This document shows positions 3,319 to 38,321 of a DNA stretch of 64,000 nucleotides, one piece after another. The number at the start of each line of letters is the position of its first letter. Position 1 is the first letter of the stretch. Source of the DNA: Candidatus Thorarchaeota archaeon (GTDB lineage: Archaea; Asgardarchaeota; Thorarchaeia; Thorarchaeales; Thorarchaeaceae); assembly GCA_020348985.1 (NCBI GenBank), contig CP070761.1, positions 1,273,747 to 1,337,746 on the forward strand. Direction: 5' to 3'. The position numbers were made by a program, and so were the translations under genes. The notes under the pieces were generated by a model. That model was not told the DNA's origin. It did no database searches and was given only the letters and a program-made list of their open reading frames with translations.

Positions 3319-4413
3319 CTACTCCGCGGCAGAGTTCTCGTACGGCAAGGGAAGAACAGTCTCATCATCTAGAACCAAGACCCCAATCTGTGACCCTGCT
3401 TCTATGTTGGGTGAAAGACGTGAGTCCTCTATCTCGGCCATCACATACGTCTCCGAATCCATAATCTGGGCAGGCTTTCCGTAGCCACGTGACACAACCA
3501 TATACTCTCGCCTAGCTGAAGCGGGTTTGAGGAACTCGATCGTTCGCCACTTTGCACTCTTAACAGTCACTGTAAATCGGCTGTTGTCTATCAAGTCGTA
3601 ACATGTCAAGCCGCCTTTGCCCATGGCCATGACCTGACATGCGTTTCCCTCAACAGTGATGAAATCACCCACTCTGAAGTGAGGCAACCTCACCAAGACT
3701 GTTATCCTGAATTTATCCTTTCCACCCTTTTCCTGACCCGTTAGCTTGTAGTTCTCTTTCCTCTCCGCCAAGAACCTTGATTGTAGTTCATCTGCGATCC
3801 TCTTTGTCAAATGCTCGGAACCAACCCAGAAGTCGATACCGAATTTGACTCTACTTGATCCGCTGACAAATGCACGATTATCCTTTCCGTATTCAGCGAT
3901 TGTGAGTTCTTCGACAATCGCAACTATCTCCTCCTCCTCTGATTCCGAGAGCGGTCTGGAATCGGCACGAATTTGGAGAATCGCTTCATAGTAGCCACCG
4001 CTCATCATTGAGCACGTAGTGCACGTCTCGTAGCTAAATCGTACTTCTACTGGGTGGTTCTCTGTGTGTGGAGCAAGGGATTCGTGAGACCTACCCTTTG
4101 CAGTAACAATGATGTGAGAAACTCGGTCCAGCCGATTCTCTTCTTCAAAAGTGATTGCGACATCACCGAAGAAGCGCTTCAGACTAAGGTCTAGACCAAT
4201 CTCAATCTGCTTGTTGACAACATCATCGCCATGAGCTTCGCTGAAATCAATCGTCCTCCAGCCTCCGGGCACTTTCACGGACCCACACTTCTTGCAGGTG
4301 ACAATAGCAAGAGGGGACTCAACCTGTACCAGAAGATGCTCCTTATTGTAGCAGCTGGCACATAGTCCGTCTATGGTAGATTCTTCACCGCAAAGGTAAC
4401 ACGGAGCTGGCAA
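3319..4413 (-). CDS. nmd3: NMD3-family large-subunit export/maturation protein
   Basis: Four CxxC pairs, GYYEAILQIR, YKLTGQ..G..K.R.TVLVR. Confidence 0.88.
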   Translation of the reverse strand: MPAPCYLCGEESTIDGLCASCYNKEHLLVQVESPLAIVTCKKCGSVKVPGGWRTIDFSEAHGDDVVNKQIEIGLDLSLKRFFGDVAITFEEENRLDRVSHIIVTAKGRSHESLAPHTENHPVEVRFSYETCTTCSMMSGGYYEAILQIRADSRPLSESEEEEIVAIVEELTIAEYGKDNRAFVSGSSRVKFGIDFWVGSEHLTKRIADELQSRFLAERKENYKLTGQEKGGKDKFRITVLVRLPHFRVGDFITVEGNACQVMAMGKGGLTCYDLIDNSRFTVTVKSAKWRTIEFLKPASARREYMVVSRGYGKPAQIMDSETYVMAEIEDSRLSPNIEAGSQIGVLVLDDETVLPLPYENSAAE

Positions 4414-36577: not shown

Positions 36578-37201
36578 ATGCAACAAGCCCCAGTGATGAT
36601 GTACTACATCGTTTTTGGACTAGGACTACTGGTTCAATTCGTTTGGATAGTCATTGGAAGAGGGGCACGCAACTCGTACTTGAGGTCCGTCACTCACTTC
36701 AGTAGACCAAGCTCCACGTTAGGCAGATTCTATACTTGGAGAATTAGTAGGGTATATCATGTCTTGCTGGAGGGGATTGCACTTGACTTGGGCATTCTGG
36801 CTGCAATGGTTGTACTTGTTTTTCCCTCAGTCAGCCTAGTTGAGATCATAGACACATTACCAATACTGGCTCTTGTGCTAGTCCTGACATTCATGAGTGC
36901 CGTTCAGGAGGCGAATCGTATTAGAGCAGTCCTGCGCGCTGAACAACATCTTCTGAGAGACATTAGCTCTGACACGGACAAAGTAGGCAGAGTCGAATTG
37001 ATTGTCGAAAGTCTTCTCTCTCAAGGCAAAATGGCTGATGGAAGTGTCTGGATGGCTCTCTTTAACATTTCACTCGTACAGAATCCAATAGGTTATGCTG
37101 TTCGGGACGTCCTTATGGAGAAGCGGAGTGAGTTTCCTCGAGCTCGCGGACCAGGAAAAGAGCCGTCAGTCAGTCCTGATAATGGCCCAGGAATCACCTA
37201 G
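36578..37201 (+). CDS. Hypothetical membrane protein
   Basis: Long ORF with about 3 hydrophobic segments; start uncertain. Confidence 0.7.
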   Translation: MQQAPVMMYYIVFGLGLLVQFVWIVIGRGARNSYLRSVTHFSRPSSTLGRFYTWRISRVYHVLLEGIALDLGILAAMVVLVFPSVSLVEIIDTLPILALVLVLTFMSAVQEANRIRAVLRAEQHLLRDISSDTDKVGRVELIVESLLSQGKMADGSVWMALFNISLVQNPIGYAVRDVLMEKRSEFPRARGPGKEPSVSPDNGPGIT

Positions 37202-37286: not shown

Positions 37287-37571
37287 GTGTCAAAGAAAGA
37301 TGTCTTGAAAGGCCGAAAGGGCGTTGTGACAAGCTATCGCAGAGGCAAGCATCTGCAGAATCCAAACCAGGTCCTCCTAATCTTTGAGGATATCGAGTCT
37401 AGGGCAGAGGCTGCAACACTAGTCGGCAGGAAGGTCAGATGGACGTCTGCTGAAGGTCGCGAGTTCTTGGGCAAAGTGCTTGGAGTCCATGGCAACAGTG
37501 GCGTTGTAAGAGCCAAGTTCAGAACAAACCTGCCGGGTCAGGCTATTGGAACTCCTGTCGTGCTTCAGTGA
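37287..37571 (+). CDS. rpl35ae: Ribosomal protein eL33 (L35Ae)
   Basis: SYRRGKH.Q.PNQ, HGNSGVVRAKF..NLPGQAIG; GTG start. Confidence 0.95.
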   Translation: MSKKDVLKGRKGVVTSYRRGKHLQNPNQVLLIFEDIESRAEAATLVGRKVRWTSAEGREFLGKVLGVHGNSGVVRAKFRTNLPGQAIGTPVVLQ

Positions 37572-37612
37572 TACCTTCATCACTTTTATCAGAAGACTCC
37601 AGCTATTTCAGA

Positions 37613-37686
37613 TGGCTCCAATGATGTTTTTTGGCTATCTGAGGGCAAAGCGCCCAGCGACGAGTCATAGTTAGACTGAGGAGCCA
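37613..37686 (+). ncRNA. Box C/D 2'-O-methylation guide sRNA with two LSU rRNA guides
   Basis: 7-bp terminal stem TGGCTCC/GGAGCCA; C ATGATGT 37621; guide TTTTTGGCTAT; D' CTGA 37639; hairpin GGGC-AAAGC-GCCC; degenerate C' GCGACGA; guide GTCATAGTTAGA; D CTGA 37676; TATA-like CTTTTATC about 25 nt upstream. Confidence 0.88.
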
Positions 37687-37724
37687 CCTCCCGAACAGCC
37701 TCAAATCATGGATAGATTGCTGAA

Positions 37725-38321
37725 ATGATCGAGTTGGTTGCCTATCTACTTGTTTACTTCGGGGCCGGTTTTATGCTGAAGCTAGGAGATGACCTACTCG
37801 ATGAGCTTGATCGACCGGATCTTGCGTGGTATCCATTGGCCGTGTCAGGAATTTTCTTCGGTATACTGATGACAACATCAGAATGGGACCTTGTACTCCT
37901 GACCGCGATTATCATAGGCGTTCTGGCGTCAGGTAAGGTCAACAGAGCTCAGTTTCTGATTGGATTCGCATTTATCGGGTTGGTCTTTGTTCTTAGATTC
38001 ATTATCACAGACTGGACGTTAGTAGTGACCAGTTGGCTTGATTGGATGGCTCTTCTAGTATCACTGTTTCTTGCAGCTGTTCTCGACGAACTGGGAAATG
38101 ACTGGACAAATCCTGAGCTTAACCCAACAGCGTACCTGTTCTTCAAGTATCGATTTAGTCTCAAGTGCTCCGTTCTTCTGCTTGCTATCTTCTGGCCCGC
38201 ATTCCTCTTAGCTGCAATAGGACTGTGGTCATTTGACCTTGGTTATGAAACAACAGGTTGGACTTTAAGAGTCAAAGTCAAGATAGAGCTTGATAGGCAA
38301 GACTACAGCAAACGTCCATGA
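37725..38321 (+). CDS. Hypothetical polytopic membrane protein
   Basis: About 6 TM segments; acidic motifs KLGDD..DE and LDELGND; FDLGYE. Confidence 0.75.
   Translation: MIELVAYLLVYFGAGFMLKLGDDLLDELDRPDLAWYPLAVSGIFFGILMTTSEWDLVLLTAIIIGVLASGKVNRAQFLIGFAFIGLVFVLRFIITDWTLVVTSWLDWMALLVSLFLAAVLDELGNDWTNPELNPTAYLFFKYRFSLKCSVLLLAIFWPAFLLAAIGLWSFDLGYETTGWTLRVKVKIELDRQDYSKRP

Follow-up and report, generated by a model that had tools for sequence, protein, structure and literature searches.

A Thorarchaeota box C/D sRNA with a D guide predicted to act on helix 69 of 23S rRNA

The locus, its host genome and its conservation

The window (the whole stretch of DNA that was analysed, 64,000 nucleotides of a Candidatus Thorarchaeota genome) contains at positions 37613-37686 of its + strand a real box C/D sRNA of 74 nt with a dual-guide layout, hereafter the Thor sRNA. 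The RNA had no earlier annotation and belongs to an already known kind of sRNA. It lies 41 nt 3' of the stop codon of the gene for ribosomal protein eL33 (L35Ae; 37293-37571, + strand, start approximate; Pfam PF01247, E 1.4e-20) and 38 nt 5' of the start codon of a 198-aa membrane-protein ORF without Pfam family, which starts at 37725. The eL33 ORF is listed with a start at 37095, and its residues 75-155 make up the Pfam match. A reading made from the sequence alone (the sequence-only reading) had placed the RNA after a ribosomal protein gene, and the Pfam match names that gene as eL33.

All parts of the sRNA lie on the + strand. The 5' half of the terminal stem, TGGCTCC (37613-37619), forms 7 bp with the 3' half, GGAGCCA (37680-37686), a pairing that is seen in the sequence, in the fold and in covariation. 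Box C (37621-37627) reads AUGAUGU, against the consensus RUGAUGA, and is followed by the 11-nt D' guide TTTTTGGCTAT (RNA UUUUUGGCUAU; 37628-37638), whose N+5 nucleotide is G37634, and by box D', CUGA (37639-37642). An internal hairpin supported by fold and covariation, GGGC-aaagc-GCCC (37643-37655), stands between D' and C'. Box C', GCGACGA (37657-37663), then leads into the 12-nt D guide GTCATAGTTAGA (RNA GUCAUAGUUAGA; 37664-37675; N+5 is T37671) and box D, CUGA (37676-37679). A TATA-like box, TTTTATC (37584-37590), is located 29 nt 5' of the sRNA, just past the eL33 gene. The sequence-only reading had listed a TATA-like box, a 7-bp stem, the boxes C, D', C' and D, and a hairpin, and each of these elements is found in the sequence where it had put them.

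The features expected of an archaeal C/D sRNA are present throughout. Specifically, the RNA has a RUGAUGA-type box C, a CUGA box D, a terminal stem and internal D' and C' boxes; its guide spacers of 11 nt (C to D') and 12 nt (C' to D) lie within the archaeal range of 10-12 nt; and an rRNA-complementary guide places a Watson-Crick pair at N+5 on the 23S rRNA of a same-genus genome. Box C' departs from the consensus at both U positions, both of which are C, and it retains the G-A and the G of the kink motif. The terminal stem and the internal hairpin both appear in the minimum-free-energy fold (z = -2.15). A strict regular expression for the full layout found one site in the 3.16-Mb genome, namely the sRNA itself, and none in the reversed-genome control. 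Crude scans of the genome, strict as well as relaxed, gave no second canonical dual-guide C/D sRNA, and a search for further C/D sRNAs that combined a C box, a stem and a 9-nt rRNA match returned 11 candidates in the genome and 6 in its reversed control, which amounts to noise.

The host MAG consists of 132 pieces joined by N runs and is 86% complete. No rRNA was found in it by a search for 23S with RF02540 and for conserved rRNA strings, and its stable-RNA complement is very incomplete, comprising only 21 tRNAs (ARAGORN) and no rRNA. The MAG does encode the L7Ae, Nop5 and fibrillarin machinery: fibrillarin (PF01269, 296 bits) and Nop5 (PF01798, 226 bits) are adjacent genes, and two genes belong to the L7Ae family (PF01248, 95 and 72 bits). 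The Asgard origin that had been surmised from the sequence was borne out by an ESCRT-II/Vps25 protein above the Pfam cut-off, which occurs in 0 of 14 control genomes, and by near-identical sRNA loci in public Candidatus Thorarchaeota genomes. A search of the genome for profilin gave no match, and the control was likewise silent.

The sRNA is strongly conserved within the family. BLAST recovered it in 14 same-family genomes, and a covariance model built on 15 family copies detected it in 25 of the 26 sampled genomes of family f1 and in the single genome of the sister family f2, with E values of 1e-14 to 1e-27. For statistics on guides and boxes, 48 distinct homologous copies were collected. The 15-genome alignment shows compensatory double changes in 6 of 11 stem pairs, a number reached in none of 500 shuffles, and 91% pairing for the real stems against ~45% for slid controls. 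These double changes fall at three of the seven pairs of the terminal stem, in which 94% of cells are paired, and at three of the four pairs of the internal hairpin; the extra hairpin that had been read from the sequence is thus present in the fold and covaries.

Boxes and both guide cores form invariant columns in the same alignment. In box C, the core T, G and A (positions 10-12 of the window's row) are invariant and the last box position alone varies; in box C', G47, A48 and G50 are invariant. The homologues use GCGACGA, AGGACGA, AUGAUGA or AUGACGA as box C'. Box D' is CUGA in most of them and degenerate in several genera (CCGA, CGAA, CUUA, CCUA, CGUUA), and box D is nearly invariant, with CCGA or CAGA in a few homologues.

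The internal hairpin has a narrower distribution than the RNA as a whole. It is found in the copies of the Thor family, in Heimdall-type copies and in those of family f7, and is missing from the copies of sister family f2, Bathyarchaeia and Sulfolobales. Typical archaeal sRNAs are ~50 nt long and carry a K-loop (PMC6009581). Because the sister-family copy lacks the hairpin, it is read as an insertion, which would turn the usual archaeal C'/D' K-loop into a closed K-turn. The f7 copy (genome G030, locus L197, ~1440-1520) is a helix 69 sRNA with a 5-bp internal hairpin, CTCCA-aaact-TGGAG, and its D guide, UCAAAGUUAC, has one mismatch against helix 69 of its own genome (UAACUCUGA).

The order eL33, sRNA, membrane gene is retained in nearly all family copies checked. 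One f1 locus, L065, is an exception to the linkage, with no eL33 match, and the eL33-sRNA linkage is present in families f2 and f18 too. Outside the Thor group, shared synteny was rejected as a criterion of orthology, since the linkage is missing in the Heimdall, Bathyarchaeia, Sulfolobales and Thermoproteales copies. A TTTAT motif starts 29 nt 5' of the stem in 34 of the 48 distinct homologues, and because it keeps this distance, the TTTTATC box is probably the sRNA's own promoter. The stretch between the sRNA and the 198-aa gene (37687-37724) contains neither a TATA-like box nor a T-run. Since this gap is devoid of a TATA-like box and the two stay neighbours throughout the family, the membrane gene may also be driven by the sRNA promoter, with the sRNA being cut from its leader.

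Further observations concern the upstream side of the locus. A perfect 6-bp hairpin, AGTGAT-accttc-ATCACT (37568-37585), spans the eL33 stop codon and reaches the T-rich TATA-like box; it resembles a terminator for eL33, and homologous loci show no evident counterpart. A few Thorarchaeota genomes have an insertion of ~630-660 nt that separates eL33 from the sRNA (L101, 6466-7103; L046, 873-1501; L102, 6050-6710), and the sRNA of L101 is not visibly preceded by the usual TTTTATC box.

Guides and their ribosomal RNA sites

Helix 69 is an element of an intersubunit bridge and of the decoding site. Because the MAG contains no assembled rRNA, pairing was checked on the 23S of a same-genus genome (L031) and on about a dozen 23S genes of the family. 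The same-genus helix 69 reads CUAACUAUGAG (family 23S helix 69: CUAACUAUGAGUC), and the family form can be written GGGAC-UAACUAUGA-GUCUC, as against the eukaryote-type GAG-UAACUAUGA-CUC. Positions 2-11 of the D guide pair without interruption with CUAACUAUGA in the same-genus 23S, forming 10 Watson-Crick bp. Helix 69 is the top D-guide site in 23S and 16S, and ~0.005 such matches are expected by chance in 4.7 kb; a weaker second site in the same 23S, at L031 2304, offers 8 Watson-Crick and 2 G-U pairs. The sequence-only reading had proposed a 12-nt complement to UAACUAUGACUC. Its target adenosine stands, and the length has to be corrected to 10 bp, because the family helix 69 (CUAACUAUGAGUC) differs from the eukaryote-type stretch.

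The N+5 nucleotide of the D guide, T37671, lies opposite the second A in the UAAC of the helix 69 loop. This A, nucleotide 2044 of L031, is the equivalent of E. coli A1913 and of yeast Am2256, a correspondence that follows from the identity of yeast psi2258 with E. coli 1915 (PMC2794176); in yeast, Am2256 sits in the helix 69 loop and is guided by snR63 (PMC2794176). The same-genus pairing thereby agrees with the earlier proposal of a dual-guide C/D sRNA whose D guide addresses the A1913/Am2256 equivalent. Guide positions 3-11 are paired in 48 of 48 homologues, and UCAUAGUUA is invariant in the 15 genomes. At position 2 the guide carries G if the rRNA nucleotide before UAAC is C (Thor L031, Heimdall-type L040), and C if that nucleotide is G (L196 with L024 of family f8, Sac-sR113 and the SNORD46 consensus). 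That this position tracks each organism's own rRNA is good evidence that the pairing of D guide and rRNA is functional, and the D guide should direct 2'-O-methylation of the A1913 equivalent. Helices 68, 69 and 71 are hot spots of archaeal methylation (PMC4644070).

The D' guide finds its best rRNA site at UAGCCAAA (GUAGCCAAA; same-genus 23S, 2061-2072), where it forms 8 Watson-Crick bp and one G-U pair. The distance from the D target to this downstream site is 21 nt, and ~0.0015 in-register 8-mers would be expected within 100 nt. The N+5 nucleotide, G37634, pairs with the C of UAGCC, C2065 of L031 and the equivalent of E. coli C1934, which computes to yeast C2277 and adjoins m5C2278; this is the site to which the sequence-only reading had assigned the D' guide, and the best match in the same-genus 23S falls on it. 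GGCUA of the D' guide is invariant in the 15 genomes. Among the 48 homologues, positions 2-6 are paired in at least 47, position 8 in 34 and position 9 in 10, so that good conservation of the pairing is confined to positions 2-7 and the usual duplex measures 7 bp (range 4-10). As an alternative D' target, tRNA was considered and rejected: only tRNA-Phe has UAGCCA, 6 nt in its D loop, which is weaker than the 23S site. Double guides often address nearby sites, and a chaperone role has been proposed for closely spaced ones (PMC6009581). Because the duplex is short and box D' is degenerate in several lineages, methylation of the C1934 equivalent by the D' guide is plausible but uncertain, and a role in tethering or folding would account for the pairing equally well.

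The 23S genes of these organisms have features of their own. In a 1.4-Mb single-contig Asgard genome of family f3 (G026), the 23S gene (L022, ~3545-3580) carries a ~29-nt insertion, CGGGAAATCTCAACGATTTCTCGAGAGACA, between UCUUAA and GGUAGCC in the linker of helix 69 and helix 70, which the same-genus genome G037 (L021) does not have and which may represent either a small intron of the rRNA or a micro-expansion. The Thor-family 23S genes (L031-L040) measure ~3.08 to 3.87 kb against an archaeal model of 2,987 positions, and the longer copies exceed the model by ~350 to 880 nt, possibly owing to expansion segments or introns.

Equivalent guides in other archaea and in eukaryotes

Beyond the two families in which it scores strongly, the covariance model gave weaker matches of ~22-37 bits in further Asgard families, which have in common the D guide (N)UCAUAGUUA(NN)-CUGA and differ in their D' guides. 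The Heimdall-type D' guide, CAAGGCAUUG, matches AAUGCCUUGU in the organism's own 23S and points to G1940, and in families f8, f17 and f18 the D' guide ..CCGGCAAG.. points to G1945. A scan of one genome per species (~186,000 species) for a pattern of C box, D' and A1913 guide followed by box D returned 109 loci. Of these, 43 are Asgard, of Thor and Heimdall type, and 15 belong to other archaea, 12 of which have a convincing full C/D layout; the remaining 51 are bacterial, a number to be set beside ~50 expected by chance, and most of them have no C' box or terminal stem that can be recognised. The 12 non-Asgard copies with the convincing layout come from Bathyarchaeia, Desulfurococcales, Sulfolobales HS-7, Metallosphaera and Thermoproteales, and their D' guides point to A1938 (Bathyarchaeia, Thermoproteales) or to G1945 (Desulfurococcales). 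The scan is not exhaustive, as it did not return S. acidocaldarius, whose published Sac-sR113 fits the pattern.

Two catalogued crenarchaeal RNAs are particularly close in design. Sac-sR113 is a box C/D sRNA of the crenarchaeal thermophile Sulfolobus acidocaldarius (Dennis et al. 2015, BMC Genomics 16:632, PMC4644070, Additional file 1). Its D guide, CUCAGAGUUACU followed by CUGA, addresses the helix 69 loop in the same register as the Thor sRNA, with N+5 at the A1913 equivalent, and its host has the helix 69 variant UAACUCUGA. Unlike the Thor sRNA, it is ~50 nt long, has no internal hairpin and carries an unrelated D' guide, CAUAAAAUAG. IHOsR91 of Ignicoccus hospitalis (PMC4644070) resembles the Thor sRNA in combining a D guide on A1913, AUCAGAGUUACG, with a D' guide on helix 70-71; it differs in that its D' guide, UAACUCGGCAAGC, points to G1945 (the yeast Gm2288 site) and not to C1934, and in having no independent internal hairpin. 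Compared with the Iho-sR91 type, the Thor sRNA has the D guide on A1913 and does not have the D' guide on G1945 (CCUUGCCGG...); its D' target is UAGCCAA(A), in which C1934 lies 11 nt upstream of G1945.

The same division of labour recurs in the sRNAs of Heimdallarchaeum type and of Bathyarchaeia/Desulfurococcales type (L092, L170, L096, L131, L166, L178, L188 and L196). They possess the A1913 D guide of the Thor sRNA, and their D' guides always land within the 12 nt of helix 70-71 that lie downstream. The precise D' target differs: Heimdall copies point to G1940, those of Bathyarchaeia and Thermoproteales to A1938, and those of Desulfurococcales and f8 to G1945, as against C1934 in Thor. The genomic context differs as well. 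Judging from these comparisons, the Thor sRNA is part of a widespread set in Asgard archaea and Thermoproteota in which the predicted D guide is fixed on A1913 and the D' landing site varies by lineage. The lineage-specific twists of the Thor sRNA within this set are its closed internal K-turn and the move of its D' guide to C1934.

Eukaryotes possess guides for some of the same nucleotides. SNORD46 and snR63 guide 2'-O-methylation at the helix 69 adenosine that is the predicted target of the Thor sRNA, likewise N+5 from box D, and the 10-nt core of the Thor D guide, GUCAUAGUUA, is identical to the Rfam consensus of SNORD46; the SNORD46 guide given in the sequence-only reading, GUCAUAGUUACACUGA, agrees with that consensus. 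The two RNAs differ in length (SNORD46 ~100 nt, Thor sRNA 74 nt) and at guide position 2, which is C in SNORD46 and G in Thor, each following its own rRNA, and no homology is demonstrable beyond guide and boxes. The D' side has a eukaryotic parallel in human SNORD15A (Krogh et al. 2016, PMC5027482), a double guide for A3764 and G3771 in helix 70-71, of which G3771 is yeast G2288. The A1938 and G1945 sites of other archaea are the yeast Am2281 and Gm2288 sites, both of which are guided by SNORD15A in human (PMC5027482). In contrast to the Thor sRNA, SNORD15A does not target helix 69; the archaeal helix 69 sRNAs reach its helix 70-71 region through their D' guides. The Thor D' site itself (C1934, yeast C2277) was not found among eukaryotic Nm sites, and position 3760 is not mentioned in the main text of PMC5027482.

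Searches with RNA family models did not extend this likeness. Rfam at the gathering threshold gave no match anywhere in the window. In a permissive Infernal scan of 501 nt, SNORD46 (RF00218) reached 16.1 bits (E 1.2) against a gathering score of 40, and snR63 gave no match at E up to 10; a search with these two models had been suggested as a check of the proposed link, and it does not put the RNA into SNORD46 or snR63. The permissive Rfam scan also gave a sub-threshold match to SNORD83 (27.9 against 35 bits), which was set aside, as were minus-strand matches to SNORD42 and SNORD65 (E 2-10), which are chance-like and lie on a strand without a 5' C box.

Proposed action and rival readings

Taken together, the data very probably describe a box C/D sRNA with a D guide on the A1913 equivalent and a weaker D' guide, belonging to a widespread archaeal set. 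The RNA would be transcribed from its own TATA box just 3' of the eL33 gene, whereupon box C/D with the terminal stem and box C'/D' with the internal hairpin would form kink motifs, each bound by L7Ae, with Nop5 and fibrillarin joining the RNA next. The D guide would then pair with the helix 69 loop (CUAACUAUGA, 10 bp), and fibrillarin would be expected to 2'-O-methylate the second A of UAAC, which faces position 5 of the guide. The D' guide would pair over 7-8 bp with UAGCCAA(A) at the junction of helix 69 and helix 71, 21 nt downstream, and this pairing could either methylate the C1934 equivalent or merely hold or fold the nascent rRNA stretch.

The sRNA could effectively be a single-guide RNA, in which D methylates A1913 and D' has lost that activity, its GGCUAU core serving for transient pairing with adjoining rRNA, as a tether or folding aid, or for the geometry of the RNP, a view that we consider quite possible, if not quite an even bet. 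The usual D' duplex of 7 bp (4-10), with pairing that drops past position 8, speaks for it, as do genera in which box D' is degenerate and the D guide and box D are intact, the chaperone role proposed for closely spaced double guides (PMC6009581), and a D' target that shifts between C1934, A1938, G1940 and G1945 by lineage around a fixed D target, which fits selection on binding of the region. Against these points stand the invariance of GGCUA in 15 genomes, the pairing of positions 2-6 around N+5 in at least 47 of 48 copies, and the window copy itself, with its 8 Watson-Crick bp plus G-U and a canonical CUGA; furthermore, a short duplex may suffice in a mesophile if the other guide holds the rRNA 21 nt away. 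The position of the RNA raises a rather different thought, namely that it is an L7Ae-binding kink-turn in the 3' UTR of eL33 or in the 5' leader of the 198-aa gene, regulating those mRNAs and guiding no methylation. It does sit 41 nt past one stop codon and 38 nt ahead of the next start codon in a three-gene order conserved family-wide, and L7Ae is reported on kink-turns of mRNAs (PMC5539422). Such regulation, however, would need neither a 10-nt guide that is invariant in 48 copies and in exact N+5 register on helix 69 nor a guide that co-varies with rRNA, and the RNA is surrounded by unrelated genes in Heimdall, Bathyarchaeia and Sulfolobales, which makes this account highly improbable.

The relation to SNORD46 and snR63 can be read at several levels. 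The functional correspondence is real, as it comprises the same nucleotide, the same register and a 10-nt core. A stronger version holds that the Thor sRNA is a direct orthologue of SNORD46/snR63, from a gene lineage that eukaryotes inherited from an Asgard ancestor. Target nucleotide, register and the core GUCAUAGUUA are common to both, the guide occurs in several Asgard classes and in Thermoproteota and could therefore predate eukaryotes, the internal D'-C' stem is reminiscent of the longer snoRNAs of eukaryotes, and among the sub-threshold Rfam matches the best are to models of eukaryotic snoRNAs. The model scores nevertheless stay far from the threshold (SNORD46 16.1 bits against 40, E 1.2; snR63 unmatched), and everything that the sequences have in common is imposed by the boxes and the conserved target and hence cannot tell descent from convergence. 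Moreover, the guide is not confined to Asgard archaea, the Thor and Heimdall copies already differ in genomic context, and target sites of archaeal sRNAs are reported to be generally not conserved between groups, implying guide turnover (PMC6009581). We regard direct orthology as unlikely. The sequence-only reading had gone further and proposed a specifically Asgard counterpart of the eukaryotic snoRNA; this idea is not supported, because the same guide is present in Sulfolobus-type archaea and Bathyarchaeia, and more fully in Bathyarchaeia, Desulfurococcales, Sulfolobales, Metallosphaera and Thermoproteales as well as in the published sR113 and sR91. Such scatter outside Asgard archaea is what that reading had itself named as contrary evidence, and it speaks against a link to eukaryotes peculiar to Asgard archaea.

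A broader reading treats the helix 69 guide as an ancient anchor of Asgard archaea, Thermoproteota and eukaryotes: A1913 would have been guided since before eukaryogenesis, SNORD46/snR63 would have descended from that guide, and D' would have 'walked' along helix 70-71. If this were true, C1934, A1938, G1940 and G1945 would be the stops of the D' guide, two of them being eukaryotic SNORD15/snR13/snR75 sites, and the internal K-turn of Thor and Heimdall would represent a step towards the longer eukaryotic snoRNA layout. The scenario strikes us as improbable; the sequence data are compatible with an old guide that eukaryotes inherited and cannot show it.

The favoured reading, a member of a widespread archaeal set with its D guide on A1913, has consequences of its own. 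Box C/D guides are poorly annotated in Asgard archaea, and the sRNA at 37613-37686 is a clear and strongly conserved example. Its A1913 guide does not identify Asgard archaea as the group from which a particular snoRNA came. Instead, the occurrence of guides for this nucleotide in Asgard archaea, Bathyarchaeia, Sulfolobales, Desulfurococcales and eukaryotes would place A1913 among the few precise archaeal sites that are conserved so far apart, and for the ribosomes of Thorarchaeota it yields a testable prediction, namely Am at the A1913 equivalent of helix 69.
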